Part shown: positions 41,613 through 63,451 of the stretch, in pieces
Numbering within the stretch: position 1 is the stretch's first letter
How the letters are laid out: the number at the start of each line of letters is the position of its first letter
DNA from: a phage
Strand: one strand, 5' to 3'
Sequence record: NC_104726.1
Length of the DNA: 64,000 bases
Translations under genes and position numbers: made by a program
The notes under the pieces: model-generated
Databases searched by the model: none
What the model was told of the DNA's origin: nothing
The model's input: the letters and a program-made list of their open reading frames with translations, nothing else

Positions 41613-41895
41613 GAGACCTGTAAAAGAGAAATTCGATAAGACAGCTTTTGTATTCGATACACCTCTGGACGATATCATCAGAGGTATGCAAGCCTTGTAT
41701 CGGAAGGCTGAATCTGAGCAGTTGTCTGAATCAGAACTTTACTGGCTTGGTTGGTGGGAGTTAAACCTGCCTAAAGCTGAAAGTTCTTGTCTGAGAACTG
41801 TTAAAACGTGCGCCCAAGAAAACGCTGCACTTGGAATCTACCACAAAAGGAAAAGATCAACAAAAAGCTCTCCAAGAAAGACTAAAAAGTCTTGA
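41602..41895 (+). CDS. hypothetical protein
   Basis: 97-aa ORF with basic C-terminus. Confidence 0.3.
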   Translation: MMAKRPVKEKFDKTAFVFDTPLDDIIRGMQALYRKAESEQLSESELYWLGWWELNLPKAESSCLRTVKTCAQENAALGIYHKRKRSTKSSPRKTKKS

Positions 41896-41921
41896 CAAAA
41901 GTGTTATTAATCTGATATTAT
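41892..41921 (+). promoter_or_regulatory. early promoter (TTGACAAA ... TATTATCGG family)
   Basis: TTGACA-18 nt-TATTAT. Confidence 0.5.
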
Positions 41922-41954
41922 CGGTCAGATATCTATAAACTAGGAGAACCAGAT

Positions 41955-42263
41955 ATGCTTAAAATTTTTATTATTGAAGATAAAGATATTGTCCAGTTGT
42001 ATGCAAACGAGAATCATAAAGGTATGATTCTGAAGAAGGCAAGTAACCTTCATGAAAACACAATTCAACCTGGTGATGTAATTAAGATCTGTGGTTATAT
42101 GATACCAGACTCCTTGATGAAAATAACCCACCACTGGGGGTCTAATCCGTTCCTTTTTGAAAAGTATTGGGATGTTGAGTCACTTATTGCAGAGAGTGAT
42201 GATGCATTCCATTACAGCATCCAACCATCTTGCAGAATAACTAACAGGAGGGTCTTTGAGTAG
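41955..42263 (+). CDS. hypothetical protein
   Basis: 102-aa ORF. Confidence 0.35.
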   Translation: MLKIFIIEDKDIVQLYANENHKGMILKKASNLHENTIQPGDVIKICGYMIPDSLMKITHHWGSNPFLFEKYWDVESLIAESDDAFHYSIQPSCRITNRRVFE

Positions 42264-43395
42264 AGAATATCCACTTATTGAGTCCATAGATTGTCTGGCT
42301 GATCTTCTTGAACCTGACGCTATAGTTTATTATGACTTCGATCAGGTTGCATATCAAGCTGCAGCAAGTTGTGAAAAAAGGACAATTGAGGTAACACACA
42401 AAGCCTCCGGACGTAAGAAGATGTTTAAAACACGAACAGAGTTCTGGGGGCGGCAGAAGAACACCGTTGGTGGTTGGTTAAAAGCTGAGAATACCAACCG
42501 TGAAGCTGCATGTAAAAAGGCTGGCAAGGAGTTTATTCCGTGGACACGAGAAGATTTCGATGTCTTGGATATCCAAACCCCTGATCCTGTAGAGAATTGC
42601 TTGCACACAATTAAGTGTAAAGCTAATGCAGTCCTTAATTATCTCGGTATTCCGGAAGATCGGTGCGTGGGGGTACTTGGAGGCACAGGTAATTTCAGAC
42701 TAGATCTTCCCATGCCGGAAAGATATAAAGCCAACCGTAACAATACTCTTCGACCACTGCTGCTTGGAGATGCAAGACAGTATCTCCAAAAGCAGTATAA
42801 TGCTCAAGTGATCAACGGTATCGAGGCTGATGACTGGTTAGCTATCCAGCAATTTGAAGGTTGGAACCACTACCAAAAAACAGGTAAGTTCAACAAGTTT
42901 ATTATCTCTATTGATAAGGACCAAAGAACACTACCGGGGCTTGTGTTCGATCCCATGCGAAACGATAAGGGAGATTTTGTAAGGGAAACCCCTATGCTGA
43001 TCGATAACGGTATGGGGAACATCTTCATGAAGCCTAATGGAGAGGTTGGTGGTTACGGAATGCTGTTCTTCGGATACCAAATGCTGTGTGGTGACTCTGC
43101 TGACAACATCAAGCCGTATCAAGGACTTATCGGTAAGGGTAAGTTCGGGGATGCCTCAGCATTCTACCTACTGTCTCAGTGCAGCACTCCAAAGGAGATG
43201 TGGGCGGCTATTATTGATCAGTACAAGAAGTGGTTCCCGAAAGGTGTTGTTAAGTATACTGACTTCAATGGTATTGATCGTAGAATTTCCGTAGGTCAGT
43301 GGATGAGTATAATTTTTGACTGTTTGTATATGAAGCGAACATTCAATGATCGAACAAAACTTGTTAACGTTCTTAGAAATGTTGGAGCAATTTGA
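42256..43395 (+). CDS. 5'-3' exonuclease / flap endonuclease (T4 RNase H-like)
   Basis: 379 aa; AIVYYDFDQVAYQAA, GIEADDWLAIQQ, GDSADNIKP parallel T4 RNase H ICLIDFSQIALSTA, KYEADDHIAVLVK, GDKKDNVAS; TTG start. Confidence 0.6.
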   Translation: MSREYPLIESIDCLADLLEPDAIVYYDFDQVAYQAAASCEKRTIEVTHKASGRKKMFKTRTEFWGRQKNTVGGWLKAENTNREAACKKAGKEFIPWTREDFDVLDIQTPDPVENCLHTIKCKANAVLNYLGIPEDRCVGVLGGTGNFRLDLPMPERYKANRNNTLRPLLLGDARQYLQKQYNAQVINGIEADDWLAIQQFEGWNHYQKTGKFNKFIISIDKDQRTLPGLVFDPMRNDKGDFVRETPMLIDNGMGNIFMKPNGEVGGYGMLFFGYQMLCGDSADNIKPYQGLIGKGKFGDASAFYLLSQCSTPKEMWAAIIDQYKKWFPKGVVKYTDFNGIDRRISVGQWMSIIFDCLYMKRTFNDRTKLVNVLRNVGAI

Positions 43396-43727
43396 TGACT
43401 AAAAATTCTGTAGATAATGCAATTATGGAAGCTGTTTTTGAGGATGATCATACAACAGGGACCATTAAAACAAAAAATACATTTATTGTTGCCACAGGTA
43501 TGTGGCGGTTGTATGAAGATGACACTATTTCATACATCCTGTACACAGATGATTACGCAGATGACCGTGTATGGTCTGCTGTTTTAAAAGAGGATTGTGA
43601 GTTGATTGAGGGCGAGCGGTTATGCATGTTCACCAGTGTGGAAACAGATGTTAAGCTTTGCTCTCTCGTCCTGTTCAAAGATAAGGCTTATGCTCCTGAT
43701 GAAGGAGAGGAGGATGAGGAAGCATGA
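43392..43727 (+). CDS. hypothetical protein (acidic C-terminus)
   Basis: 111-aa ORF. Confidence 0.35.
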   Translation: MMTKNSVDNAIMEAVFEDDHTTGTIKTKNTFIVATGMWRLYEDDTISYILYTDDYADDRVWSAVLKEDCELIEGERLCMFTSVETDVKLCSLVLFKDKAYAPDEGEEDEEA

Positions 43728-44353
43728 GAGAGCGTCTATTATCCATAGACCAGTCGTTGACACACACAGCTTGCGTTGTATGGGACGATGGAAAGCCTGT
43801 TCATAAGGTTGTGTTACGAACTCAAAGCTCATCTGCAAAAGAGAAGAAACCAGGGACGGTTTCTTTTGCAACAGCTGCTGAGCGTATTGACTGGATCTGC
43901 AAACAGGTCAGATATTATATCCACACGCACGGCGTTGACACCGTGGTTATGGAAGGGCTTTCCTTTGGATCACGCGGGGATGCCACACGTGAACTGGCTG
44001 GGTTGTTTTACGGTCTTGAAGTTATGCTTTGGGATGCTTTGGCTGATTGTGAAAATGACGGCCTGTTTAAGGTCCACACAGTGACACCAACAACTGCCAA
44101 AAAGTTTGCTCGTAGTCATCTTCCTGAGGAACTTGCTTTTGAGGAGAAGAAAAAGCTTGACAAAAAGACAGGTAAAGAGCATACTGTGAAGAAACCTGTT
44201 ACGATGGATAAAAAGTTGATGGTTAAGGCCTGCGAAGTATCTGAACCAGGGTTCCTAGATGGGATCAATTTGGTACAAGGTAAGGCCGATCTCGCAGATG
44301 CTTATTGGATAGGCAGGGCGCATCTGGAGGGATTATCGCAAAGCGTAAAATAA
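43724..44353 (+). CDS. RuvC-like Holliday junction resolvase
   Basis: 209 aa; N-terminal LSIDQSLTHTACVVW and C-terminal DAYWIGRAHL resemble RuvC catalytic motifs. Confidence 0.45.
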   Translation: MRERLLSIDQSLTHTACVVWDDGKPVHKVVLRTQSSSAKEKKPGTVSFATAAERIDWICKQVRYYIHTHGVDTVVMEGLSFGSRGDATRELAGLFYGLEVMLWDALADCENDGLFKVHTVTPTTAKKFARSHLPEELAFEEKKKLDKKTGKEHTVKKPVTMDKKLMVKACEVSEPGFLDGINLVQGKADLADAYWIGRAHLEGLSQSVK

Positions 44354-44910
44354 GAAAGAAAGCTGTCAAAGCCCCAGTTCATAACGGGTGGTTAAAAGAT
44401 TCTAAGGACATAGCCAACTTTCGAAAAGAATTGTCAGAGGAGCAAGATGGTCTTGATCCGATCTTGTGCGAGCCACTTCGTAAGCCTTGTCTAGATCATG
44501 ATCATCTGACTGGTCGTTGCAGGGGTGTTTTGTCTCAGTGCACTAATACCTTTGAGGGGTATGTGCTTAAATACTGGATGAAATACTGTAACGAGTATAC
44601 AGATTGCAGTTTATCAGAGGCGTTGCGCCGGATGGCTGACTATCTGGAGAAAGACTACAGCGACTTCCCGCTCCACAAAAACTACAGAGATGATATGACA
44701 AAGTTCTTGAGGAGATGCTCTAAAGCTACGATCATTGCACGAGCAGAATCAGATCTCAATCTTGTCATTAATCCAGAGTGCACCAAGCATGAGGCTATTG
44801 AGTTCTACATGCAGGAGTTTATAAAGAAAACTGAGGAGAGAGATTTCTATGGGGATGAAAAAGGTATTCAATCCTTGCGATTCAGTTCTGATCAGGATGA
44901 AATACCGTAA
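44305..44910 (+). CDS. endonuclease VII (T4 gp49-like) resolvase
   Basis: 201 aa; CLDHDHLTGRCRGVLSQCTN matches Endo VII zinc/HDH core. Confidence 0.65.
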   Translation: MDRQGASGGIIAKRKIRKKAVKAPVHNGWLKDSKDIANFRKELSEEQDGLDPILCEPLRKPCLDHDHLTGRCRGVLSQCTNTFEGYVLKYWMKYCNEYTDCSLSEALRRMADYLEKDYSDFPLHKNYRDDMTKFLRRCSKATIIARAESDLNLVINPECTKHEAIEFYMQEFIKKTEERDFYGDEKGIQSLRFSSDQDEIP

Positions 44911-45070
44911 CTGGAAAGGTGTTGTTGCAGATCGCTGCGTTACTGAGCCTAATTTATGGTTTGGCTCTACAGAATATCATAAAGAAGAGCAGTGGTTGAT
45001 GCATGCCTTCGATGTAGACAAGGGCGAATATCGTGACTTCGCTTTAAAAGACATTCTTCAGTTTTACTAA
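44849..45070 (+). CDS. hypothetical protein
   Basis: 73-aa ORF with GAGGAGAG RBS; overlaps 3' end of Endo VII gene in another frame. Confidence 0.3.
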   Translation: MGMKKVFNPCDSVLIRMKYRNWKGVVADRCVTEPNLWFGSTEYHKEEQWLMHAFDVDKGEYRDFALKDILQFY

Positions 45071-45076
45071 GGAATC

Positions 45077-46066
45077 TTGACGATGATGACAAAGTTAACT
45101 CTTGAGCAAATTTTAACACTAAAGCAACAGGGATACACTAATAGACAAATTGCTCGTGAATTTTTAGGCCGTGAGTCACGTGAGAGCTGGATCCGACTAC
45201 AGCTTAAACGTGCACAAGAGAATATGTCAGAGATTGTAGGAGAAGCAACGGAGCGCTTCCTTGAAGAGCACAAAGGCGCTAAAGTTTGGGTGTATGATAC
45301 AGAGACATCCCCAACAAACGGCTGGTTCTTTGGGCACTATAAGACCAACATTCAAACCTGTGGTATTGAAGTTATGCCTTATATGCTAACTTTCGCAGGT
45401 AAGTGGTTAGACAGTCCTAGTGTGGTTGACTGCGCTCTTCCCGATTACAAAATGTGGGATGAGGATATTCACAATGACCTCGAATTGATTCAGGACTTGT
45501 GGTATTATCTGGATAAATGTGATGTCGCAGTAGCCCACAATTCAGGTTTTGACTGTGGGTGGGCAAACCAACGATTTGCATTTCACGGGTTGCCTCCAAC
45601 AAGCCCATACAAAGAGGTTGACACCCTTAAAATGATCAAGAAGGCATTCCGTTTGAATGCAAACACTTTGGAGTATGCATGCAAATACTTCCAACTTGCC
45701 AGACAGAAACTGATTGACCACACATTTGAAATGTGGATCAAGTGTGTTCATGGTGATCTTGAGGCGTTTAAACAGATGCGGGAGTACAATGTTGGTGATA
45801 TCCTATCTCTGGAAGGCCTGTATTTGCTGGCACGCCCGTTTGCTAAGCAGCACCCCAACATGTCATTGTACTACCAGGATGAGGAGCCAAAAGTTCGTTG
45901 CCCACGCTGCGGTGGAGAACACCTTCACGAGGAAGAAGCTTTGGCGTATACTCAACTGAGTGCATTTAAAACATATCGCTGCGAAGGTTGTGGATCTGTT
46001 GTTCGTGACCGTAACAACATCCGTACCAGAGAAGAAATGAAAAACACCCTGATTCAGATAATCTAA
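45077..46066 (+). CDS. DEDD-type 3'-5' exonuclease with N-terminal HTH and C-terminal zinc ribbon
   Basis: 329 aa; HTH-like LKQQGYTNRQIAREF; Exo I VWVYDTETS, Exo II HNSGFD, Exo III YNVGDILSLEGLY; CPRCGG...CEGCG. Confidence 0.5.
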   Translation: MTMMTKLTLEQILTLKQQGYTNRQIAREFLGRESRESWIRLQLKRAQENMSEIVGEATERFLEEHKGAKVWVYDTETSPTNGWFFGHYKTNIQTCGIEVMPYMLTFAGKWLDSPSVVDCALPDYKMWDEDIHNDLELIQDLWYYLDKCDVAVAHNSGFDCGWANQRFAFHGLPPTSPYKEVDTLKMIKKAFRLNANTLEYACKYFQLARQKLIDHTFEMWIKCVHGDLEAFKQMREYNVGDILSLEGLYLLARPFAKQHPNMSLYYQDEEPKVRCPRCGGEHLHEEEALAYTQLSAFKTYRCEGCGSVVRDRNNIRTREEMKNTLIQII

Positions 46067-46075
46067 TCAAGTATA

Positions 46076-46103
46076 GGGAGGCTTGCGCCTCCCTTTTCCT
46101 TTT
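46076..46103 (+). terminator. rho-independent terminator after exonuclease gene
   Basis: hairpin GGGAGGC-TTGC-GCCTCCC followed by TTTTCCTTTT; overlaps 5' end of ORF 46083..46931. Confidence 0.55.
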
Positions 46104-46112
46104 GGAGGCACT

Positions 46113-46931
46113 TTGAGCAAGAAAGAGTCCAACGACAAATATTACACAAACCCTGAGTATGCAGAATATCTTGTTGGTAAAGTAAAAGATAAGTATGGAA
46201 ATTGTGCATACGTTGAGCCTTCTGCTGGAAGGGGTTCTTTTTCAAAACTATTTTCAGAGATACTGTCTTACGATCTAGTACCAGATCCTGAATTTGAAGG
46301 ACCAACACCGTGCATTCAGGCAAACTTCTTGGAGGTGCATCCCAAGGCAGATGTCTTCATAGGTAACCCACCATTTGGCAAGAATTCATCTTTAGCTTGC
46401 AAATTCTTTAACCATTGTGCATCATTGCTAGAGCTTGGAGGGGCTATAGCCTTCATCTTGCCACGGACATTTGAAAAAATATTTTTTGCAAACAAACTGG
46501 ACATGTCGATGCACCTTGTCTACAGTGAAAGGTGCCCTAAGAACTCGTTTCTACTTAATGGCAAACCTTATGACGTGCCGTGTGTTTTCCAAATTTGGGA
46601 GAAAAAGGCGTGCAACAGGGATCCTGTAGAGATTGGGGAGAATAAGTTATTTTCTTTTAGCACTCCAGATGACTACGACTTCTGTGTAAGACGTGTTGGG
46701 TATAATGCTGGAAAAGTATTGGGGGAGGATGACCCAAAATCTGAAGAATCTACATATTTCATAAAATCTTTAGTTGACGGTGTTGACAGAGTGTTTGCTG
46801 AATGCTATTCTTCTTTTCAAGAAGAAGCAGGTAAGACTGCTGGAATGAAGAGTATAGGCAAGAAAGAACTACAATACATTTTGGAGACCCGGTATGATCA
46901 AAAGCATAGACTTGACCAAAGAACTTACTGA
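46113..46931 (+). CDS. N6-adenine DNA methyltransferase (NPPF motif)
   Basis: motif I EPSAGRGSF, motif IV FIGNPPFG; start moved to in-frame TTG at 46113 because upstream part is a terminator hairpin. Confidence 0.6.
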   Translation: MSKKESNDKYYTNPEYAEYLVGKVKDKYGNCAYVEPSAGRGSFSKLFSEILSYDLVPDPEFEGPTPCIQANFLEVHPKADVFIGNPPFGKNSSLACKFFNHCASLLELGGAIAFILPRTFEKIFFANKLDMSMHLVYSERCPKNSFLLNGKPYDVPCVFQIWEKKACNRDPVEIGENKLFSFSTPDDYDFCVRRVGYNAGKVLGEDDPKSEESTYFIKSLVDGVDRVFAECYSSFQEEAGKTAGMKSIGKKELQYILETRYDQKHRLDQRTY

Positions 46932-47352
46932 TGCAAAAGCTTTTGGTGAGACAGCGGTACAAAGAGGCCAGGCTATGGGACTGGCACTACCTTTCGTCTT
47001 AAAAGAGCACTTTACAGATTTTCAACTTATCAAGGGTGATAAGGGAATTCTTATCCTGGAGCATAAGTTGAGTAAGAAACGCTATAAAGTTGTTTTTAAT
47101 TCTAAAGCTCCAACAAAACTGGGATTCAGAACTTACAATCTTAACCCATCCTACACTAAGGGTGTAGGAAGAGTAGAACAACAGCATTTCAGTGCCAGAG
47201 CTTCTTTAGCCCCTTTGATGCTAAATTTTTCAGGGGTGGCTTTAGGATACCTTGACAAGAAAAGAGTTCTTCATGTCCGTTTCACAGACTTTGTAACGCT
47301 TTTAGCTAACAATGAGGTAGATGAAAAGGGACGTGTAAAAACAAACTTCTAA
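46894..47352 (+). CDS. hypothetical protein
   Basis: 152-aa ORF. Confidence 0.35.
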   Translation: MIKSIDLTKELTDAKAFGETAVQRGQAMGLALPFVLKEHFTDFQLIKGDKGILILEHKLSKKRYKVVFNSKAPTKLGFRTYNLNPSYTKGVGRVEQQHFSARASLAPLMLNFSGVALGYLDKKRVLHVRFTDFVTLLANNEVDEKGRVKTNF

Positions 47353-47367
47353 TAACGCATAGTATGA

Positions 47368-47571
47368 TTGGAGACAGCAATGACACTAAAGTTAACAGTT
47401 CCAGACAGCTTTTCAGAAAACTTTATCCCAGAAATGATGGATAAGATGCGATCATTGCTTGATCAGATTGAAGAGGCTGTTTGGGAAGACGATGCTGTAG
47501 TGGCTAACGAGCTGGTAGATAAGTGTAAAAGTATTATTGATGCAGTTGAAGAATACCACGGAGGTTTTTGA
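47368..47571 (+). CDS. hypothetical protein
   Basis: 67-aa acidic ORF. Confidence 0.3.
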   Translation: METAMTLKLTVPDSFSENFIPEMMDKMRSLLDQIEEAVWEDDAVVANELVDKCKSIIDAVEEYHGGF

Positions 47572-48185
47572 TGGATATTATTGTTCTTAACGCCCCACCT
47601 AGTAGTGGTAAGGATCACATTGCAGATCTCTTGTTGGAAGCTATTCCTAACTCACACCATCATGAGGTTAAGGAGATGCTCTTCAGCGTGGCAATTAAGG
47701 CAGCTGGTGTAACTCCTCAACTCTGGAATGCACTTTATGACCGCCACTACAAAGAAGAGCCTTGCCCTTTCTTAATGATAGACGGTAAGCATGTTTCTCC
47801 GCGAGAGTGGATGATCCATTGTAGTGAAAATCTGATTAAACCTATCTTTGGTGAAGATGCTTTCGGTAAGGCCGCAGTCACATCCTTGAAGAAAGATTTC
47901 CCTAAAGGTAAAGGGGTTGTTGTTTACTCCGATGGTGGATTCAAAGAGGAGCTGGCATGCCTTAGTGAGTACGCATACAGCACAGGTGGAGATCTGTTGT
48001 TGTTCCGTATTCACCGTGTCGGATATGACTGGGGAAATGATTCCAGAACCTATCTAAGTCTGGAAAAGAACGGAATAAAAGGGATTGAGTTCGATGTTGT
48101 AAACCCTGAAGGTGCACCTTGGGAGTGTGCATCGGAGATTGTGTGCAAGTATATTGATGCTAAAGAGGCCCAAGAAGAATGTTAA
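47568..48185 (+). CDS. deoxynucleoside monophosphate kinase (T4 gp1-like)
   Basis: 205 aa; N-terminal IIVLNAPPSSGKDHIADLLLEA parallels T4 gp1 LIFLSGVKRSGKDTTADFIMSN. Confidence 0.5.
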   Translation: MMDIIVLNAPPSSGKDHIADLLLEAIPNSHHHEVKEMLFSVAIKAAGVTPQLWNALYDRHYKEEPCPFLMIDGKHVSPREWMIHCSENLIKPIFGEDAFGKAAVTSLKKDFPKGKGVVVYSDGGFKEELACLSEYAYSTGGDLLLFRIHRVGYDWGNDSRTYLSLEKNGIKGIEFDVVNPEGAPWECASEIVCKYIDAKEAQEEC

Positions 48186-48772
48186 TCGGAATTGATGTAG
48201 ATTTGACACTGGTAGATTCAGGAACAGCATGGTGGGAGTGGTTGGAGCGTTTGTATGGTCCAGCCAGTAAGACAGTCGCTAAACCTTCTAATGGACTGAT
48301 GTATTACGATCTGTCAAAGTATTGGCCTGATCGCCCCAAAGAAAACATCATAGGGCCTTTTGATTTCTGGAGTGACCCATTCCTCTACGACTTTCTTAAG
48401 CCTGAAGAGGGGGCTATTGAGGTTATGAAAGATTTGGTGGCTCGTGGTCACAAGCTTGCATTTATCTCGGTATGCAAGAAAGGTCACCTTGCATCTAAAT
48501 CAAGGTTCTTAAAGCGTTGGACCAGTGATTTTATGGATCTGGACGATCACACCCAGGGTCACGGCTTCTACGCCACACATTTCAAAGGAAATGTGGCTGT
48601 AGATGTTATAATTGACGACAGGCATGAATACCTCAACCAATTCGCTTCACGACCTGAAGTTATTAAAATCCTAAAAGATACGCCTTATGAGCAATTCGAG
48701 GAGTTAAAGGTCAGTATTGACTATACCGCCAATAGCTGGTATAAAATAGGAAAGTTTTTAGAAGGTATTTGA
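48179..48772 (+). CDS. HAD-superfamily 5'(3')-deoxyribonucleotidase-like phosphatase
   Basis: 197 aa; DxDxT motif IGIDVDLTL; later DVIIDDR. Confidence 0.5.
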   Translation: MLIGIDVDLTLVDSGTAWWEWLERLYGPASKTVAKPSNGLMYYDLSKYWPDRPKENIIGPFDFWSDPFLYDFLKPEEGAIEVMKDLVARGHKLAFISVCKKGHLASKSRFLKRWTSDFMDLDDHTQGHGFYATHFKGNVAVDVIIDDRHEYLNQFASRPEVIKILKDTPYEQFEELKVSIDYTANSWYKIGKFLEGI

Positions 48773-48773
48773 A

Positions 48774-48974
48774 ATGGGCAGATGTTCTAAAGGTGGCGAT
48801 CCTGTAGTCAGATACGGAGACTGGCTAGAGGTATATAATCTGGAGGGAAAGCTAGTGTATGCTTCCAGGATCACCCAGGATATGTGCTCTGATATGTTTA
48901 ACAGGTACCTTGCATTTAAGGCCAACATAAACCCAGACGAAATTTCCAAAATTAAAACAAGGAGAGCTAAATAA
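48774..48974 (+). CDS. hypothetical protein
   Basis: 66-aa ORF. Confidence 0.3.
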   Translation: MGRCSKGGDPVVRYGDWLEVYNLEGKLVYASRITQDMCSDMFNRYLAFKANINPDEISKIKTRRAK

Positions 48975-49957: not shown

Positions 49958-49986
49958 TCCTATCACAGCGATAGGTAACTTTTGTG

Positions 49987-50015
49987 TTGACTAATAGTAT
50001 CAGATAATCTATAAT
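49987..50015 (+). promoter_or_regulatory. sigma70-like promoter
   Basis: TTGACT-17 nt-TATAAT; preceded by palindrome CCTATCACAGCGATAGG. Confidence 0.55.
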
Positions 50016-50055
50016 AATGGCTCACTTTGTTGGTGAGCCAGAAATGGAGACAGAT

Positions 50056-50517: not shown

Positions 50518-50527
50518 GGTGGTGAAG

Positions 50528-50758
50528 ATGAGTCATAACTCCAAGTGGAAGGATCTTGGTTTTGCAAGTCGGGCAGAATATGTTGGTTGGCTTTGGTTCA
50601 ACGGCCTGACAAACGATATTAAAATGTATGATGATGTTTATTATGACGAGTATACAGGCAAAATTATAAATATCTCTGTAGAAGAGGATACCTTTATCCA
50701 GCAAGATACTGATACCTGCCTTGATAAATACGTTAATGAAGTGGAGGAAGCAAATTGA
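50528..50758 (+). CDS. hypothetical protein
   Basis: ORF 50450..50758 trimmed to Met at 50528 (AAGGTGG RBS). Confidence 0.3.
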   Translation: MSHNSKWKDLGFASRAEYVGWLWFNGLTNDIKMYDDVYYDEYTGKIINISVEEDTFIQQDTDTCLDKYVNEVEEAN

Positions 50759-53070: not shown

Positions 53071-53075
53071 TTTTA

Positions 53076-53098
53076 AAGGGGCTTCGGCCCCATTTTAG
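53076..53098 (+). terminator. hairpin attenuator/terminator between nrdA and nrdB
   Basis: GGGGC-TTCG-GCCCC followed by ATTTTA. Confidence 0.4.
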
Positions 53099-53109
53099 AG
53101 GTTAGAATA

Positions 53110-54198
53110 ATGGCTGTATTTAATGCTGAGAACACCGCTCATAAAACTGGTGACTATCCGCTGTTTCTAGGACAGCAAATGGGTATGTACGACTCTATCA
53201 ACAAAAAATATCCACAACTGTTTGAACTATACAAAAAACAAAAAGAGCAAGATTGGGCAGAGGATGAAGTGGATTTGTCGCAATCTATTTCAGATTTTGT
53301 AACATGCTCAAAGTCAACTTATGACGTGATGGTGCAGACCTTGATGTGGCAATGGGAGGCTGATAGCGTTGCGGCAAGATCGATCATCTGCCTCTTTTCA
53401 CCATTCATCACTAATAGTGAGCTTTTCACTCTATTGATGAAACAGTCAGAGATTGAAGTTCTTCACGCACTAACTTACTCAGAGATTGTTAGACAATGCC
53501 TCCCCAATGCCCGTGAGATTATAGAAGAGATTCAGGAAAACCAAAACGTTCTGAGCAGATCCGGCGTTATTGTCAAATACATGCAAGAGCTTGAGGTTAT
53601 TGGTGCAAAATACCGCCTGGATCCTTCTAGTGTTGAAGAAGATATTGTGCGGAAATGCATTCTTAGAGCGCTTTTTGCACTTTTAGCCCTGGAAAGTATT
53701 GAGTTTATTGCAAGTTTTGCATGCACTTTCGCAGTAGCTGAACAGGGTATTTTTGTTCAGGTGGCGCAGCTTGTTCAAAAAATCATGCTTGACGAAATGC
53801 TACATTCGAAAGGTGATTTTGCCATCATTGATATCTTGCTTAACGATCCCGCATGGGAGAAAAGCTTCCTGGAGATAAAAGGGGAGTTAAAAGAGATTCT
53901 TGATGAAGTACGAACCAAAGAGTACGGTTGGAGTGACTATATTTTCAGCGAAGGAAGAGCGATTATAGGTCTTAACTCACCGTTGCTTAAAGAATGGGTT
54001 GACTATAACTGCTCACCGATTTATGATTACTACGACATCGACAAAGACTTTGTGCCGCCAACAAAGGACCCGCTACCGTTTATGCAGGTGTGGATGAAAC
54101 CTTCATTGCAACAGACGGCGAACCAAGAAATGTCGAACACTGACTACCGCGTCAACACAACTGTTAACGACGCTGAAGAAGAAATTTGGGAGTTTTAA
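53110..54198 (+). CDS. nrdB: ribonucleotide reductase class Ia small subunit
   Basis: 362 aa directly downstream of nrdA; helical ferritin-like composition with E/H-rich motifs. Confidence 0.75.
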   Translation: MAVFNAENTAHKTGDYPLFLGQQMGMYDSINKKYPQLFELYKKQKEQDWAEDEVDLSQSISDFVTCSKSTYDVMVQTLMWQWEADSVAARSIICLFSPFITNSELFTLLMKQSEIEVLHALTYSEIVRQCLPNAREIIEEIQENQNVLSRSGVIVKYMQELEVIGAKYRLDPSSVEEDIVRKCILRALFALLALESIEFIASFACTFAVAEQGIFVQVAQLVQKIMLDEMLHSKGDFAIIDILLNDPAWEKSFLEIKGELKEILDEVRTKEYGWSDYIFSEGRAIIGLNSPLLKEWVDYNCSPIYDYYDIDKDFVPPTKDPLPFMQVWMKPSLQQTANQEMSNTDYRVNTTVNDAEEEIWEF

Positions 54199-54201
54199 TA
54201 T

Positions 54202-54480
54202 ATGAGCTGCGAAAAATCTTTTTTCATCATCATTTACGGTAAGGATAACTGCCCACATTGTGTCAGAGCAAAAGAATTTGCAATCAGCAAAGGTCTGCCT
54301 TTTGTATATAAGACACTTGGCGAGGGCTACACAAAAGAAGAGCTTATTGAGAAGTGTAGTCCAATCGTCCCCCGAACGTTGCCGCAGATCTTCTTAGAAA
54401 GCGATCTTGACAGTATCCATATAGGCGGTGCCGACGATTTCATCTCTTTTGTTAAGAATGGTTTTGGAGAGAAAAAGTGA
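54202..54480 (+). CDS. glutaredoxin-like protein (NrdH/Grx)
   Basis: 92 aa; CPHC redox motif near N-terminus; between nrdB and nrdD. Confidence 0.65.
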   Translation: MSCEKSFFIIIYGKDNCPHCVRAKEFAISKGLPFVYKTLGEGYTKEELIEKCSPIVPRTLPQIFLESDLDSIHIGGADDFISFVKNGFGEKK

Positions 54481-55337
54481 AAGTTGTAAAACGGGACGGT
54501 AGAGAAGAGTTCTATAACGGAATTAAGGTGATCAAGGCGGCAGAGTCCGCCTTACTTGAGTCTGGACATACTGAAGAAGAAGCTTACCGGATCGCTTGTG
54601 CGGTTAATGAAGTTGTTGCTAACAATCTGCCAACCGACCAGTGCACGATCTCTGTAAAAAATATCCATATCCTTGTTGAAGATGCTCTTATGGATATGGG
54701 TTTAAAATGTGCAGCCAGAGAATACATCCAGTATAGACAGACAAGAGATAATAACAGAGAGGCAGGTGGAAAACTGCTTGCAGATATTAGTGGCTTCTTG
54801 GATCGAACTTGTGATGAATTTACAAAAGAAAACGCAAATAAGCCTACTAATCATGTACACACTCATCGCGACCTGCTTGCAGGTATTCTTAGCAAACACC
54901 TTGCATCAACACAGATCCTGCCAGACCGTGTCTCCGAAGAGCACAATAAAGGCTTCATCCATGTGCATGATCTTGACTACTTGATCAGTCCGTTAACAAA
55001 CTGTTGCTTGGTAAATTATCCAGATATGTTGGAAAACGGATTCAACATTGGTAACGCCCATGTCAGTAAGCCGAAGTCAATAGGGGTTGCAACAACAATC
55101 CTTAGCCAAATCTCTAGTGCGGTAGCTAGTGCTCAATATGGTGGTCAGACTATGAGCCATATTGATCATTATCTGGCACAGTATGCTGAAGCGACCTATG
55201 AGAAGAACCTTAAATTTTGCCAGGAACATTGGTTGCCAGATGCTGAAACTGTTGCAATGCAAATGACAGATAAAGACGTGTTTGACAGCATGCAGACGTT
55301 GCTTTATCAGATCAACACACTAACCTCGGTAAACGGT
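54477..55337 (+). CDS. nrdD: anaerobic ribonucleotide reductase, exon 1
   Basis: GTG start overlapping grx stop; ATP-cone; ...FIHVHDLDY...TNCCLVNY...; ends ...QINTLTSVNG, colinear with T4 NrdD ...VNTLFSSNG. Confidence 0.75.
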
Positions 55338-55594
55338 TAACAAACTGGCCGTTTTAAAACTCTGCTAACCTTAGTATGAGGGGTCAGCTGATCGCTGGCT
55401 AACGGGGAACGCTAAGGCGAAAGCTATGCCAATCCCGTGACTAGCTTCACAAGGAGTGAGGCGGTTGTAACGACTAACCTTTTGGTGTAGGGATTATGGA
55501 AGATTCCGAAACGCAGGGGTCTGATTAAGAATCACACGGTGTGATTTCAGGCAAGAGATAGTCTGGCCTTGTGGAAACATAAGGGTGGGGACCG
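55338..55594 (+). mobile_element. group I intron in nrdD (no ORF)
   Basis: 257 nt with stops in all frames between exon 1 (...SVNG) and exon 2 (QTPFITL...); exon ends in U, intron ends in G; R-like GTTGTAACGACTAA and S-like AAGAGATAGTCTGG. Confidence 0.6.
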
Positions 55595-56857
55595 CAAACC
55601 CCTTTTATCACATTAAGTTTAGGACTGGATACCTCGGTCTTTGGTAGAATGATTACCAAAAATTACTTGAAAGTCCACAAAATGGGTCTTGGTGAAGAAC
55701 GGATCACACCTGTGTTCCCTAAAGTGCTGTTCTTCCTAGAAGAGGGTGTCAACATGAACCCTGAGGATCCTAACTATGATTTGAAACGATTAGCTCTGGA
55801 ATGCTGTGCAGAACGTATCTACCCTGACTTCGTATCTGTACCACTAAATAGAAAAGTGACAGGCTCGACAGATGGCAAAGTAACGAGCATGGGTTGCCGG
55901 AGTTTTCTTAGCAAATACAGTGACTTGGAAACAGGCGAGGAGAAATATCTTGGCAGATTTAACTTAGGCGTTGTTAGCCTTAACCTACCAATGATTGCGG
56001 CAAAAGCTAAGACGGAAGGTGTTGATTTCTTTGCAGTTCTTGACGAATACTTGGATCTTGCATACGAGGCTCACCTTGTAAGGGTTAACCGTCTAAAAGG
56101 AACAAAGGCAGGGCAGAACCCCATCATGTGGTGTGAAGGAGCTCTTGCTCGCCTGGATCCTGAAGAGAGTATTGATAAACTCTTCTATGACGGGTACGCT
56201 TCCATCAGCATTGGGTATATTGGTGTGTATGAAACCTGTCAGATTTTGGGTAGAGAGGGTGACAAGGCTTTAGCTCTTGGAATCCTTCAGCACATGAGAG
56301 ATGCTTGTGAGCGATACAAGAAGGAAAGTAGACTAGCGTTTAGCTTGTACGGCACTCCTTCTGAGAGTCTATGCTATAAAGCTGCAACCTGTCTGGATCG
56401 TGAATATCCGGAAGTGTTGAAGCACGAGCATGAATATCTCACCAACAGTTTCCATCAGCCAGTATGGATCAATAGCTCTCCTTTTGATAAGTGGGAGTAT
56501 GAGGAAGGTTTTGCTATGATCTCCTCCGGTGGCAACATCGGATACGTAGAGACACCTAACCTGAAAAACAACCTTGATGCTTTAGAGGCTCTTGTTGACT
56601 TCGGGTATAAACACATTATGTATTTTGGTATTAACCAACCTGTGGATAAATGTCTCAAGTGTGGTTTCTCTGGTGAGTTCAGTGCAACAGCTAAAGGGTT
56701 CTGCTGCCCTGCGTGCGGATGCCACGATGAACAATATATCTCAGTGATCCGAAGAGTGTCTGGATACCTTTCCAGTCCTAACTCCCGTCCTTACAATAAA
56801 GGTAAGCAAGCGGAAGTTATCGAGCGAGTTAAGCACTACGGAAGTTGTGGTTGCTGA
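55595..56857 (+). CDS. nrdD: anaerobic ribonucleotide reductase, exon 2
   Basis: QTPFITLSLGLDTS... colinear with T4 NrdD QTPFVTITFGTGTD; C-terminal zinc site CLKCGF...CPACGC and glycyl-radical motif RVSGYL. Confidence 0.75.
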   Translation, partial: QTPFITLSLGLDTSVFGRMITKNYLKVHKMGLGEERITPVFPKVLFFLEEGVNMNPEDPNYDLKRLALECCAERIYPDFVSVPLNRKVTGSTDGKVTSMGCRSFLSKYSDLETGEEKYLGRFNLGVVSLNLPMIAAKAKTEGVDFFAVLDEYLDLAYEAHLVRVNRLKGTKAGQNPIMWCEGALARLDPEESIDKLFYDGYASISIGYIGVYETCQILGREGDKALALGILQHMRDACERYKKESRLAFSLYGTPSESLCYKAATCLDREYPEVLKHEHEYLTNSFHQPVWINSSPFDKWEYEEGFAMISSGGNIGYVETPNLKNNLDALEALVDFGYKHIMYFGINQPVDKCLKCGFSGEFSATAKGFCCPACGCHDEQYISVIRRVSGYLSSPNSRPYNKGKQAEVIERVKHYGSCGC

Positions 56858-56923
56858 TACTTGACAAAAGCCACAAGGATGTGGCACCCTTAGTTCAAAG
56901 ACGAGAACTAAGAGGATTCAGCA

Positions 56924-58084
56924 GTGAGAAAACTTACAACCGAAGATTTTATAGAGGGGGCGAAAGCAGTTCATGGTGATAAATATGATTATTCCAAAGT
57001 CAAATATGTGGGTGCACACACCAAGGTTGTAATTATATGCCCTGAGCATGGAGAATTTAAGAAAACTCTTGGAGATCACCTCCGTAAAAAACAGGGTTGC
57101 CCAAAATGTCAGATTGAAGCAGAAAGAGCGGCTTCTGCTGAAAAATTTAAAGCGGAGGCCGAGGCTAAGTATAATTATAAATATGATTACTCTAAGGTAG
57201 AGTATGTAAATGCTAAAACTAAAGTTGTGATTGTTTGTCCTGTTCACGGCGAGTTTGAGCAAAAGCCTGATAACCATCTCCGCGAGGGGGGTTGCCGTAA
57301 GTGTGGAGGAACTGAGAGAAAGACTACTGAAGAGTGGATCGCTGAGGCAAAAGCGCTTCATGGCGATAAGTATGATTACTCTCTTGTAAATTATAAAACC
57401 GGTAATGATAAAGTGGAGATAATCTGTAATACATGTGGTGCTCACTTCCCACAAAGACCTCATGACCATGCACCAAGTGGAAAAGGTTGCCCCGAGTGCG
57501 GGAAGAAGAAGGTGGCCGAGGTTAGTAGGAAGACGCAGAGAAAGAAAGCATCTGAGGTAGCTAAAAGGTTTGAGGCAAGAGCCAGAGCTATCCATAAAGA
57601 TAAATACGATTATTCCGGGGTGGAATATGTTAATAGGGAGACAGAGGTCACTATCATCTGTCCGATTCACGGGGAGTTCACACAAAAACCGTTTGTCCAC
57701 ATCAACCAAAAAGCTGGCTGTCAAAAATGTGCTAAAGTCGGCTTCTTATCTCATGAACATGGTAGCCTTTATATCATGGTTGACGATCTGGAAGTACCAA
57801 CTATGATGAAAATTGGTGTGAGTGTCCGGGTAGATGAACGAAGAAAAGATGTGTTAAAAAGAGCTAAAAAAGCTGGTGCTAGATTCTCTGATCTACATGT
57901 TATAAAAACTTGGGAAGGAACAACAGACGACATGCAAACTTTAGAAAAAGCTATGCACCAAGCCTTGAGCCAATACAAAATCAACTTCACAGAGAAGTTT
58001 GATGGCTGTCGAGAGTTCTTCTACTACAGACCGGAGGTATTCGAGCTAGTAGAAGAACATTTGAAGAAATTTGCTAATAAATAA
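56924..58084 (+). CDS. homing-endonuclease-like protein: four zinc-ribbon repeats plus C-terminal T5orf172-type domain
   Basis: 386 aa, GTG start; repeats HGDKYDYSKVKYV...ICPEHGEF...GCPKC x4; C-terminal ...GCREFFY resembles T5orf172 domain. Confidence 0.55.
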   Translation: MRKLTTEDFIEGAKAVHGDKYDYSKVKYVGAHTKVVIICPEHGEFKKTLGDHLRKKQGCPKCQIEAERAASAEKFKAEAEAKYNYKYDYSKVEYVNAKTKVVIVCPVHGEFEQKPDNHLREGGCRKCGGTERKTTEEWIAEAKALHGDKYDYSLVNYKTGNDKVEIICNTCGAHFPQRPHDHAPSGKGCPECGKKKVAEVSRKTQRKKASEVAKRFEARARAIHKDKYDYSGVEYVNRETEVTIICPIHGEFTQKPFVHINQKAGCQKCAKVGFLSHEHGSLYIMVDDLEVPTMMKIGVSVRVDERRKDVLKRAKKAGARFSDLHVIKTWEGTTDDMQTLEKAMHQALSQYKINFTEKFDGCREFFYYRPEVFELVEEHLKKFANK

Positions 58085-58145
58085 TAACACACAAAGGGCC
58101 AGCTTTATTCTAGCCCTTCAGTCCGTTGTAAATTAAGGAGTTGTT

Positions 58146-58271
58146 ATGTCATCTGGTGGCTTTAAAGTAAAAATTTGTAAACACTGCGGTTGTAAGTGCA
58201 ATCTTCGTTGGTGCAAGGCACTGGACGATTTTATTTGGCATTGCCCTAAATGTGATGCGGAGTATCTATGA
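58146..58271 (+). CDS. small zinc-ribbon protein
   Basis: 41-aa ORF MSSGGFKVKICKHCGCKCNLRWCKALDDFIWHCPKCDAEYL, stop overlaps nrdG start (ATGA); below ORF-track size cutoff. Confidence 0.35.
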   Translation: MSSGGFKVKICKHCGCKCNLRWCKALDDFIWHCPKCDAEYL

Positions 58272-58741
58272 ATATTGCCGGATACACAGAAATATCTTAC
58301 ACCGAAGGGCCAGGTATTAGAACTGCCTTATGGGTATCTGGGTGCCCACACGCTTGCCCTGGTTGCTTTAATCAGGCATTTTGGTCAAAAGATAAGGGGA
58401 GAGAGTTTACTGAAGAAGACTTGCAAAAAATCTTGTCAGATTTAGATAACCCGTCTGTGTGCGGTATCTCTCTGCTGGGTGGAGAACCCTTAGCATACTA
58501 TAATGAGCCAGATATTATTAGCCTGATGGAGAAAATTAAGGAAAAATTTGGTGACAAGAAAACTATTCTTGTATATACTGGGTTCACATTTGACCATATC
58601 TCTAGTAATGTTCTTAAACTGGCTGATATCATCATTGACGGTAAGTATGTAAAAGATTTACCAACCAAGAAACCGTTCCGAGGTAGCGATAACCAAAGAA
58701 TGTTTAAAAAAGTAGCAGGCGGTTGGGTCCAGGTAGACTAG
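58268..58741 (+). CDS. nrdG: anaerobic ribonucleotide reductase activating protein (radical SAM)
   Basis: 157 aa; CPHACPGC radical-SAM cysteine motif. Confidence 0.75.
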   Translation: MNIAGYTEISYTEGPGIRTALWVSGCPHACPGCFNQAFWSKDKGREFTEEDLQKILSDLDNPSVCGISLLGGEPLAYYNEPDIISLMEKIKEKFGDKKTILVYTGFTFDHISSNVLKLADIIIDGKYVKDLPTKKPFRGSDNQRMFKKVAGGWVQVD

Positions 58742-58744
58742 TTG

Positions 58745-58774
58745 TTGACAAAGCTTTGTTTAGATAGGTATAAT
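58745..58774 (+). promoter_or_regulatory. early promoter (TTGACAAA ... TATAAT family)
   Basis: TTGACA-18 nt-TATAAT, followed by AGGAGG RBS of small ORF. Confidence 0.55.
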
Positions 58775-58805
58775 TATCGTAAAATGAAAGCAGAGGAGGT
58801 GCCAA

Positions 58806-58919
58806 ATGGCTAAAAAAGCCTTGAAGAAGGCGTACAAGAAAGAGATTGCGCTTGAGCTTAAGAAAAAACACAAGCGTGAAAAGAAACATCATGAAGATGA
58901 AGAGGGGGTGCAACAGTGA
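58806..58919 (+). CDS. small basic protein
   Basis: 37-aa ORF MAKKALKKAYKKEIALELKKKHKREKKHHEDEEGVQQ with strong RBS; stop overlaps next start. Confidence 0.35.
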   Translation: MAKKALKKAYKKEIALELKKKHKREKKHHEDEEGVQQ

Positions 58920-59266
58920 CACAAGAACGTATCGATTTGGCTAATAAGTTTGTAGATCTCATTTTGCCACGGTTAGTTACTCAACATGCAGATGCTATTT
59001 CTACTAATCTTGATGGCTTACGTCTAATGCTGAATCGCACAGATGACCCTCGTATTCGGGCTGATTTAGAAGCCTCTGCCAACAAACTGGAAAAGTTCTT
59101 GCAAGTAGGTACGCAAGAAGCCTTACACAAGATTATGGTGGAAGGTTTCTCTAAAGAATTTACCATTAAAGAGCTTAAGGAGCTGATCCACCAAGAAGAG
59201 ATGAATATCCGAGTTCAGGCTGTTGCAAGCAGCATGGAAGCGGCTATTGAAAAACTGTTGCAGTAA
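58916..59266 (+). CDS. hypothetical protein
   Basis: 116-aa helical ORF, GTG start. Confidence 0.35.
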   Translation: MTQERIDLANKFVDLILPRLVTQHADAISTNLDGLRLMLNRTDDPRIRADLEASANKLEKFLQVGTQEALHKIMVEGFSKEFTIKELKELIHQEEMNIRVQAVASSMEAAIEKLLQ

Positions 59267-59304
59267 AAGTTCCAGACACATCTCAATCTGAAAGGAGTCC
59301 CAAC

Positions 59305-60099
59305 ATGGGTCGAGCTAAAGAAACAAAACGCATGCGTGATGAAGCTAAAGAGGCTCGCAAATCTGATCGCCTGCGTAAAGCTGCTGAGAAATTTGCTGAA
59401 GAACGAGAGCACACAGCTCCAGCTCTCCGACCGATGAATAAAAAACAAGAGTATTATCTCCACCTTCTTAAAACTAAACAGTTAGTGATCGCAACAGGGC
59501 TGTTTGGCACAGGCAAGTCGTTTATGGCTGCAGCTTATGCTGCAGACCTGCTTCGTAAGAACGAGATTGATAGAATTATTGTTTGCCGCCCAAATGTTGA
59601 ATGTGGAAGCCATGGCACGGGGTTCAAACCTGGAGGTGTATTACAGAAAAACGAACCTTTCTTAAAATCAATTTTAGAAACTCTCAAAAAACGACTCGGA
59701 CCTGGTGCTTATAGTACGTTATTGGGAGACGGTCAGACTGGGCGCATCGAGGTGCAAGAGGTTGCAACAATCCGAGGTCGAGATTTCTCTGATCGTTGCA
59801 TCATCCTAGTTGATGAGTTTCAGTTGACAACCTGTGCAGAGGCTTTGGCAATTGCCACACGGCTTGGTGAGCATGCACAAATGATTTGCATGGGAGACTT
59901 ACGACAGAACGATCTCAAAGGCACCTCAGGACTTCAGTGGCTGATCGACTTTGTAACGAGGCACGAAATCAACGGTGTTGGTATCGTAGATTTTGACGAG
60001 CCAGAAGATGTGGTTCGCTCAGGTATTGGTAGACTGTTTGCACTAGGCCTTATGACTGACCGTAATAAAGGTGTGTGGACCCCTGAGGCAGGTTTATAA
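59305..60099 (+). CDS. phoH: PhoH-like ATPase
   Basis: 264 aa; Walker A GLFGTGKSF; Walker B ILVDEFQ. Confidence 0.7.
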   Translation: MGRAKETKRMRDEAKEARKSDRLRKAAEKFAEEREHTAPALRPMNKKQEYYLHLLKTKQLVIATGLFGTGKSFMAAAYAADLLRKNEIDRIIVCRPNVECGSHGTGFKPGGVLQKNEPFLKSILETLKKRLGPGAYSTLLGDGQTGRIEVQEVATIRGRDFSDRCIILVDEFQLTTCAEALAIATRLGEHAQMICMGDLRQNDLKGTSGLQWLIDFVTRHEINGVGIVDFDEPEDVVRSGIGRLFALGLMTDRNKGVWTPEAGL

Positions 60100-60111
60100 T
60101 ATATATAGGAG

Positions 60112-60135
60112 AGAGGGTGATATTATTCACCCTCT
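60112..60135 (+). terminator. hairpin after phoH
   Basis: perfect inverted repeat AGAGGGTGA-TATTAT-TCACCCTCT. Confidence 0.35.
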
Positions 60136-60142
60136 ATTTAAG

Positions 60143-61072
60143 ATGCGTTTAGGAGAACAGTTATCACGAGAAGAAGTGTTTATCAAGAAAGCTACTGATA
60201 AGCATGGTGACAAGTATGATTACTCCAAAGTTGTATACAAAAACAACACAACACCTGTGAATATAGTGTGCAACAAGTGTGGTACAGTTTTTAGTAAAAC
60301 TCCTAAGTCTCACCTTATAGGCGCAGGATGCCCAGATTGTAAGAACAGGGAGTTAAGTGAGAGATTCCGAATGTCTAAGGAGGAGTTTGTAAAAAGGGCA
60401 ACAGAACTGCACAAGGGGAAGTATGACTACTCTCTTGTAAAAAGTTTTTCTAACAGGAACGACACTGTTACTATTATTTGCCCCATCCACGGAGAGTTCA
60501 AGCAGACAGTTGCAAATCATTTAGCTGGTGGGTGCTACAAGTGTGGAAAAAGAGCGACAGCTAAAAAGATGAGGAAGTCTAAAGATAGATTCATAGAGGA
60601 TGCTACTCAACTACACGGAGACATATATGACTATTCAGAAGTGAAGTATGTGAATACCCACACTCCTGTAACCATTATCTGCAAGTCTTGCGGGTGTAAG
60701 TTTCTTCAACAGCCTGCAAACCACCTGTGCGGTAACGGTTGCCCAGAATGCTCTACTTCAGGATTCAGGCAGAGTACTAAAGAGAGCTGTCTGTACCTTC
60801 TTGTTGATGATCTTACCATTCCCACGGTTATAAAAGTTGGGGTGACTATCAATCTACAGAGCAGACTATACAACATAAGAAGGAACACAAATTTTCCTGT
60901 TCACGTGCTTAAAGTATTTACTTTCGAGCAGGGGTGTGCTACCATGCAGATTGAAAAATTGGTGCATAAAGTCTTTGCAGATCGCAACTGCCACTTCGAA
61001 GGTTTCGACGGGGCAACGGAGTGGTTCTGGTACTCTCATGATATTGTAGAGTTTCTAGAAGACAATTGTTGA
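60143..61072 (+). CDS. homing-endonuclease-like protein, paralog: three zinc-ribbon repeats plus T5orf172-type domain
   Basis: ORF 60071..61072 trimmed to Met at 60143 (after hairpin); repeats HGDKYDYSKVVYK...CNKCG...GCPDCK x3; C-terminal ...GATEWFWY. Confidence 0.55.
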   Translation: MRLGEQLSREEVFIKKATDKHGDKYDYSKVVYKNNTTPVNIVCNKCGTVFSKTPKSHLIGAGCPDCKNRELSERFRMSKEEFVKRATELHKGKYDYSLVKSFSNRNDTVTIICPIHGEFKQTVANHLAGGCYKCGKRATAKKMRKSKDRFIEDATQLHGDIYDYSEVKYVNTHTPVTIICKSCGCKFLQQPANHLCGNGCPECSTSGFRQSTKESCLYLLVDDLTIPTVIKVGVTINLQSRLYNIRRNTNFPVHVLKVFTFEQGCATMQIEKLVHKVFADRNCHFEGFDGATEWFWYSHDIVEFLEDNC

Positions 61073-61097
61073 CAAACAGATAAGCTTTAGGTATTAT
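61069..61097 (+). promoter_or_regulatory. early promoter (TTGACAAA ... TATTATCGG family)
   Basis: TTGACA-17 nt-TATTAT; near-identical architecture to promoters at 58745 and 41892. Confidence 0.55.
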
Positions 61098-63415: not shown

Positions 63416-63451
63416 TTGTGTATTGTTGTTTTCAACAAGAGGGGGTCATTT

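Follow-up and report, generated by a model that had tools for sequence, protein, structure and literature searches.

Results

Probable promoter sites of the rightward cluster

We analyzed a 64,000-nucleotide stretch of phage DNA (sequence record NC_104726.1; referred to as the window and numbered from its first letter) around four promoter-like sites, at positions 41892, 49987, 58745 and 61069. The window belongs to an rV5-like coliphage of the genus Vequintavirus. Its DNA is 98% identical to Vequintavirus genomes; used as a megablast query, positions 41000-62000 gave matches of 95-99% identity in over 110 of them, among which are rV5, FV3, navn and BASEL phages. The part between 34.7 kb and 64 kb is occupied by a rightward cluster of genes for DNA repair and nucleotide metabolism and of small genes without known function, co-linear with rV5 genes 82-125. 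The four sites fall within this cluster and are named here after their rV5 orthologues, with the genes that follow them:

41892..41921 (+): P93 orthologue; TTGACA (41892-41897)-18-TATTAT (41916-41921), 11/12 matches to the sigma-70 consensus; the spacer ends in TGA, an extended -10 (TGn)
Downstream of P93 (+): predicted start at ~41927/41928, ribosome-binding site (RBS) AGGAG, ATG at 41955; 102-amino-acid (102-aa) gene, exonuclease, RNase H, EndoVII, DnaQ-like exonuclease
49987..50015 (+): P106/P107 orthologue, called P107 below; TTGACT-17-TATAAT, 11/12; TG precedes the -35; predicted start at ~50019-22
Downstream of P107 (+): gp107 and gp108 (two small genes), nrdA, nrdB, grx, nrdD, nrdG
58745..58774 (+): P118 orthologue; TTGACA-18-TATAAT, 12/12; TG precedes the -35; predicted start at ~58781
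Downstream of P118 (+): RBS GAGGAGG, ATG at 58806; 37-aa open reading frame (ORF), 116-aa ORF, phoH
61069..61097 (+): P121 orthologue; TTGACA-17-TATTAT, 11/12; TG precedes the -35; predicted start at the A at 61104
Downstream of P121 (+): RBS AAGGAG, ATG at 61128; 103-aa gene, then a ClpP-like protease (clpP)

The predicted start sites rest on the usual distance of 7 nucleotides (nt) from the -10 hexamer.

Sites with at least 11 of the 12 consensus positions number nine in the window, the four above among them, whereas 100 first-order Markov simulations of the window gave an expectation of 1.67 +/- 1.2 and a maximum of 5. All four sites have a Shine-Dalgarno sequence and a start codon within about 25-40 nt on their 3' side, the -10 being about 31-41 nt from the start codon with the Shine-Dalgarno sequence in between, and the gene layout is as in the rV5 and navn annotations. 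We confirmed that the sequences quoted in the initial annotation at these positions are present there exactly. Its claim that they are sigma-70 promoters 5' of gene blocks agrees with the excess over chance, with the conservation of the hexamers described below and with the existing annotation of rV5.

The rV5 genome had been searched for TTGACA(N15-20)TATAAT and by MEME (Kropinski et al. 2013, Virol J 10:76, PMC3606486). Among the predicted sigma-70 promoters in Table S4 of that study are P093 (TTGACAAAAGTGTTATTAATCTGATATTAT), P107 (TTGACTAATAGTATCAGATAATCTATAAT), P118 (TTGACAAAGCTTTGTTAAGTTGGTTATAAT) and P121 (TTGACAAACAGGTAAGCTTTAGATATTAT) (PMC3606486). RefSeq record NC_011041 likewise carries the regulatory features P93, P106, P118 and P121, each labeled "Sigma70-type promoter," at the orthologous positions, P106 of the record being P107 of Table S4. 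These promoters share hexamers, spacing and downstream genes with those of the window. Across the listed span from -35 to -10, P093 and P107 match the window, while P118 and P121 differ at a few spacer bases only. The promoters have been published and annotated in rV5, and the finding is hence already known.

Orthologues of the promoters were extracted by blastn, and a footprint set of 11 promoters was aligned across 5-6 Vequintavirus genomes. The comparators were rV5, navn, S127, SYGMH1, EduardKellenberger and a relative from IMG/VR, with Seunavirus, Mydovirus and Certrevirus as other genera. Scans of IMG/VR with three downstream proteins returned one related contig only, which is the most divergent Vequintavirus-like comparator, and thus too few sequences for a profile. 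In the footprint set, variable columns made up 0/66 (0%) of the -35 hexamer, 5/66 (8%) of the -10 hexamer, 4/33 (12%) of the last three spacer bases, 28/115 (24%) of the mid-spacer and 20/88 (23%) of the eight bases 3' of the -10. The hexamers of P93 were kept in seven genomes except for one change in SYGMH1, those of P118 showed no change in seven genomes, and P107 was nearly invariant across six. Invariant hexamers amid drifting spacers are the footprint expected of working promoters. All four sites combine hexamers at a spacing of 17 or 18, a position upstream of genes on the coding strand and hexamers under purifying selection. Together, these features make it very probable that each of the four sites is a promoter of the sigma-70 type, placed ahead of a gene block in the rightward DNA-metabolism cluster.

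Sequence 3' of the -10 hexamer

The initial annotation had gone further. It took an extended -35 (TTGACAAA) and a TCGG after the -10, seen at 41892, 58745 and 61069, as shared marks of one transcriptional class, possibly with a phage-specific recognition element. With respect to the second mark, TATTATCGG is present at only two of the three sites, 58745 carrying TATAATTATCGT. TCG starts 0 nt 3' of the -10 at 41892 and 3 nt 3' of it at 58745 and 61069; measured from the start of the -35, the distances are 27, 30 and 29 nt at 41892, 58745 and 61069, respectively. The letters that follow the -10 also change among orthologues:

P93: CGG (window, EduardKellenberger), CGT (rV5), CAG (navn, S127, SYGMH1), CTC (IMG/VR relative)
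P118: TATCGT, TGTCGT, TAGCGT, TGCCAT
P121: TATCGG, CGA (S127, with a 3-nt deletion between the -10 and CG), TACTGG, TATTCA

A few positions outside the hexamers are substituted in rV5, where P93 reads TATTATCGT and P118 reads TATAATTGTCGT, and the "TATCGG" signature is thus largely absent from it. In position statistics over 31 rV5 promoters, C, G and G at +1 to +3 after the -10 were rare (5, 7 and 2 of the 31).

Three copies of the composite pattern TTGACAAA-N(17-22)-ATTATCG are present in the window and none in shuffled sequences, a comparison that says little because the pattern was written after the fact from the same three sites. Exact copies of the motif number three in the window, two each in navn, rV5 and EduardKellenberger, one in S127, and none in SYGMH1, in the IMG/VR relative or in the other genera; the subset of promoters carrying it changes from genome to genome. 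As the eight bases after the -10 vary to the same extent as the mid-spacer (23% versus 24%), the TCGG stretch evolves like unconstrained spacer. Being out of register, variable within the genus and as variable as neutral spacer, TCGG could not be upheld as a shared signature. The letters TATCG(G) would represent unconstrained discriminator and start-site sequence that is similar by happenstance in the lineage of the window.

Sequence 3' of the -35 hexamer

The string TTGACAAA occurs 13 times in the window, compared to 4.6 expected, and five of these occurrences are in promoter contexts. Besides the three sites above, it is found in the promoters ending at 30819 and 31834 (- strand), which correspond to P(tRNA) and P75 of rV5 and lack TATCG. 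AA follows the -35 in 5/33 rV5 promoters, two of them without TATCG, and in 13/78 of all TTGACA in the window, so that AA is not enriched in promoters. An A at +1 after the -35 was present in 15/31 rV5 promoters (uncorrected p = 0.015, which is not significant over ~35 positions), and +2 gave no signal. In Seunavirus and Mydovirus, the orthologous P118, which likewise precedes the small ORF that follows nrdG, reads TTGACATT or TTGACATA; AA is lost, and the letters after the -10 are unrelated (GAGTGC or TTATGT). Thus, TTGACAAA is neither enriched in promoters nor kept at P118 in these two genera, and its reading as the mark of a class is not supported. If anything, the AA would do no more than tune the spacer mildly at its upstream end.

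Similarity outside the hexamers

Similarity was scored at 32 in-register positions outside the hexamers, over 351 pairs and 2925 trios of promoters. In their window versions, P93 agreed with P118 and with P121 at 9/32 positions each, below the mean of 9.8. The trio of P93, P118 and P121 ranked in the top 8-13% of the 2925 trios and was not an outlier. A permutation test for any class defined by the flank of the -35, with three members sharing a 4-mer after the -10, gave 0.28 with the look-elsewhere effect allowed for. The post -10 element stands at no fixed distance and is not conserved in the orthologues, and the trio shows no extra likeness outside the hexamers; the proposal of one class with a phage-specific recognition element therefore fails on register, on conservation and on similarity. 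The broader notion of a conserved promoter family stands insofar as these are strong sigma-70 promoters; its "TTGACAAA-N-TATTATCGG" sub-family does not go beyond chance once strong promoters are given.

Additional signals were detected in the rV5 promoters as a whole. These comprise an A-rich tract at -45 to -39, which resembles an UP element and begins 4-10 nt before the -35 (best positions p = 1e-4 to 5e-4); G at -36, directly before TTGACA and often as TG (15/31); G at -14 (17/31) and -13 (15/31), which amounts to a partial extended -10; and, after the -10, C at +4 and A at +7 (16/31), the A being the likely start site. The A and G positions were significant. The signals agree with the Certrevirus consensus and resemble the description of the T4 early "uber" promoter, both of which are taken up in the Discussion.

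Orthologous loci in other genera

The 102-aa gene and the intergenic gap of P93 are absent in Certrevirus and Mydovirus, and these genera consequently have no orthologous P93 promoter. A TTGACAAAAG...TATCATCGGG promoter found ~1.2 kb upstream in Mydovirus and Seunavirus was considered as the P93 orthologue and rejected, as its position is that of P90. No sigma-70 site of at least 10/12 was found in the P121 gap of Seunavirus and Mydovirus.

In Mydovirus/Seunavirus-like genomes, the promoter before the small gene-HNH-exonuclease block reads TTGACAAAAGGCCCGGTGAT..TATCATCGGGTCTC (L011 241-300; L013 714; L014 1515; L020 1318). Its -10 is bracketed by a conserved inverted repeat of 9 base pairs (bp), CCCGGTGAT/ATCATCGGG, with a variable centre. 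This repeat may be an operator in those genomes. The promoter bears a superficial likeness to P93 of the window.

Other predicted promoters and elements in the window

Further sites and structures in the window are as follows:

16231..16259 (-): P51 orthologue; TTGACA-17-TAAAAT, within the structural-gene block
30791..30819 (-): P(tRNA) orthologue; TTGACAAAC-N-TAATAT upstream of the tRNA cluster; TTGACAAA present, no TATCG
31196..31224 (-): P74 orthologue; TTGACA-17-TAAAAT (11/12)
31806..31834 (-): P75 orthologue; TTGACAAAAA-N-TAAGAT; TTGACAAA present, no TATCG
33654..33683 (-): P76 orthologue; TTGACA-18-TATTTT
34343..34371 (-): P80 orthologue; TTGACA-17-TATAGT (11/12)
40872..40900 (+): P90 orthologue; TTGACA-17-TATTGT with TGG before the -10; the same kind of promoter, without AA and without TCGG
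49959..49975 (+): terminator-like hairpin; CCTATCACAGCGATAGG and then a T-rich run, directly upstream of P107; conserved in the orthologue alignment
50020..50038 (+): GC-rich stem-loop GCTCAC-TTTGTT-GGTGAGC with which the predicted P107 transcript begins; the segment of the 5' untranslated region (UTR) that was folded gave -11.2 kcal/mol
63398..63426 (+): further candidate promoter; TTGACA-17-TATTGT, ~25 nt 5' of an RBS and ATG

The hairpin at 49959..49975 would mark a transcription-unit boundary. The place in the rV5 record NC_011041 that corresponds to 63398-63426 carries no regulatory feature. The orthologous P107 promoter of Seunavirus/Mydovirus-like contigs (L013 ~9240, L015 ~1230, L019 ~2350) is followed by a stem-loop of other sequence, at -13 to -15 kcal/mol, and GC hairpins are also located 3' of the rV5 promoters P168, P174, P185, P192 and P194 of the small-ORF region. 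The hairpins of P107 and of these rV5 promoters resemble the promoter-stem-loop cassettes of T4-type phages. An Rfam scan of the window detected no RNA family at any of the four promoter sites.

The terminase large-subunit region contains a group I intron at 28122-28400 (-) (Rfam RF00028, 84 bits, E = 6e-20), with a sigma-70-like TTGACA-17-TAACAT inside it at 28340 (-); the terminase gene of rV5 is annotated as a three-piece join. The gene for the anaerobic reductase, nrdD, is interrupted at 54477-58150 (+), with ORFs at 54477-55340, 55649-56857 and 56924-58084, and is intact in rV5 (2124 nt). The gap at 55340-55650 looks like structured RNA and matched no Rfam family at gathering score; homing endonucleases are annotated here in related phages. 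Between P118 and P121 lies a mosaic module, 59584-61058 (+), whose phoH protein is only 60% identical to its counterpart in rV5, in FV3 and in most other Vequintaviruses; full identity (100%) is seen in a few records only. An extra gene of ~310-333 aa follows phoH in this module, at 60071-61072.

The database match nearest to the window (97.9-99.9% identity), from the phage collection records MG0656xx ("Campylobacter phage C2, C5, A141 ..."), carries the label of a Campylobacter jejuni phage. It is a typical Escherichia coli Vequintavirus, and the host label of ~20 such records looks doubtful.

Discussion

We consider it highly probable that the four sites are ordinary strong sigma-70 promoters, belonging to an rV5-like genome-wide set of ~33 that restarts transcription at the heads of operons, and that their extra letters are no recognition element. 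According to this model, the E. coli RNA polymerase of the host, with sigma-70, would read the sites at 41892, 49987, 58745 and 61069, and transcription would start anew at each of them, ahead of a short operon (exonuclease/RNase H, nrdAB-nrdDG, phoH and clpP, respectively). Recognition would proceed through the -35 and -10 hexamers, set 17-18 bp apart, and would be helped in many members by the A-rich UP-like tract, the G before TTGACA and the G at -14/-13. "Early" timing is plausible for promoters so close to the consensus. The finding is an ordinary one because the sites are already annotated in rV5 and because the extra shared letters fail as a special class.

Several observations weigh against such a plain account. 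In the lineage of the window, P118 and P121 are the most similar of the 351 pairs (19/32; the next pairs score 18, 18 and 17), and from the -10 into the 5' UTR they are identical at 23/30 positions. Across seven genomes, none of the six AA columns in the three promoters varies, compared to 57% of the remaining spacer columns (naive P = 0.006), and some selection on the two AA bases is conceivable. Moreover, the literature searched holds no start mapping, RNA sequencing or in vitro transcription for any member of the Vequintavirinae, and activity and timing are for this reason inferred from the DNA. With regard to AA, the same two positions are variable in only 1/12 cases in promoters with AT, GC, TG or TA, and over all promoters in 1/22, compared to 22% in the rest of the spacer (Fisher p = 0.08). 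Since promoters without AA are equally conserved there, any constraint would act on the position generally and not on AA.

The invariance of AA, which holds in all orthologues of the three promoters, also speaks for a rival reading in which TTGACAAA and a post -10 T(A)TCGG define a distinct temporal class, with a phage-specific element read by a phage factor or a modified RNA polymerase, by analogy with T4 middle promoters or the class-specific homologies of T5. The three composite motifs in the window, compared to none in shuffles, point the same way. In addition, the five TTGACAAA promoters of rV5 all lie within its 62-90 kb central region, with 0/13 in the small-ORF region at 107-133 kb (Fisher ~0.025, chosen after the fact). 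We nevertheless regard a distinct class as very unlikely. TCG(G) stands either 0 or 3 nt after the -10 and changes in close relatives at all three promoters, to the point of the 3-nt deletion in P121 of S127, within an 8-nt stretch that varies like neutral spacer. The promoters at 30819 and 31834 have TTGACAAA without TATCG, AA is no more frequent in promoters (5/33) than among TTGACA at large (13/78), and its positions are as conserved where AA is missing. P118 of Seunavirus and Mydovirus, with TTGACATT or TTGACATA and GAGTGC or TTATGT, retains neither mark, and neither the permutation test (0.28) nor the trio ranking sets the three promoters apart. A narrower proposal dispenses with TCGG: in a subset of the promoters of replication and nucleotide-metabolism modules across the Vequintavirinae, selection could have kept two or three A's at -29 to -27, often as TTGACAAA(A)G, as an "extended -35" through which a phage factor or a polymerase modified by the phage would time the operons. 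Such A's are also present in Seunavirus and Mydovirus, in promoters like P90 and P107. The invariance of AA is compatible with this proposal. Apart from that invariance, everything else is explained without an extended -35, and the proposal strikes us as highly improbable.

The likeness of P118 (58745) to P121 (61069) could instead mean that the two derive from one short promoter cassette, either by descent from a common ancestor or through gene conversion. Modules might in addition be exchanged by recombination at such a cassette, as with the promoter-stem-loop cassettes of T4-type phages. The rank of this pair in the window lineage, a 30-nt direct repeat of 77% identity running from the -10 into the 5' UTR, and the course of homology to rV5 are in line with this. 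Homology is lost at 59583 and begins again at 61059, which is 10 nt before the P121 -35, with a divergent phoH allele and an extra gene between. However, the same pair in rV5 scores 14/32 and ranks 25 of 351, so that the similarity is lineage-specific and small. Other chance repeats of 74-77% over ~20 nt occur within the same 2.5 kb, the swapped module has its left junction within phoH and not at a promoter, and much of the shared sequence (-10, A-rich leader, RBS) is functionally forced. We consider such a cassette very unlikely. Finally, TATCGG could be half of an operator-like inverted repeat over the -10, bound by a phage repressor, the candidates being CTGATA-T-TATCGG and ATCTGA-N9-TCAGAT for 41892 and, for 58745 and 61069, GATA...TATC. 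ATCTGA-N9-TCAGAT does flank the -10 of P93, and the CCCGGTGAT/ATCATCGGG repeat surrounds the -10 of the TTGACAAAAG promoter at the Mydovirus and Seunavirus loci. On the other hand, no inverted repeat above the threshold of the tool was found at 41800-42000, the P93 repeat is destroyed in navn and in the IMG/VR relative, and the GATA/TATC arms are separated by 1, 9 or 13 nt depending on the promoter and hence cannot be one operator type. We dropped the operator, an extremely unlikely explanation, on account of the inconsistent arm spacing and the loss of the repeats in relatives.

The reading as ordinary strong sigma-70 promoters confirms the reliance of rV5-like phages on many near-consensus host-type promoters across the genome, as proposed in 2013. 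The conservation table and the family-wide signals could help to annotate ~150 Vequintavirus genomes, most of which are without promoter features. A general lesson is that a new class should be put forward only after the likeness of its promoters has been examined in register and compared with orthologues.

Sequence beyond the hexamers has been proposed before as common to a class of phage sigma-70 promoters. Gentz and Bujard are said to have described class-specific homologies among T5 early promoters in 1985, and Arbiol, Comeau and Krisch reportedly described promoter-early stem-loop (PeSL) cassettes in T4-type phages in 2010. In contrast to both, the extra letters shared in the window are neither in register nor conserved, and among the four sites a stem-loop is present at P107 only.

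Closer to the window is the sigma-70-like consensus of Certrevirus phages CB7, CR3, CR8 and CR9, AAAA(N3-4)TGTTGAC(N17-19)TATAAT (Buttimer et al. 2020, PMC7344957). Certrevirus is of the same subfamily; TG precedes TTGAC at three of the four window sites, and the rV5 set has the A-rich upstream tract and the G at -36. It is, however, another genus with another host, and its consensus extends the -35 upstream, without a downstream AA and without an element after the -10. In rV5 itself, the authors reported an Srd-like protein only and no homologues of T4 gp33, gp45 and gp55 (PMC3606486). In the description of Hinton 2010 (PMC2988021), the early promoters of T4 are "uber" promoters of the form UP/-35/TGn/-10 that carry further consensus regions. 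Although TGn is present only at 41892 among the four window sites, the two sets are alike in consisting of near-perfect host sigma-70 sites with weakly conserved extra positions, which would allow them to compete for the host polymerase.

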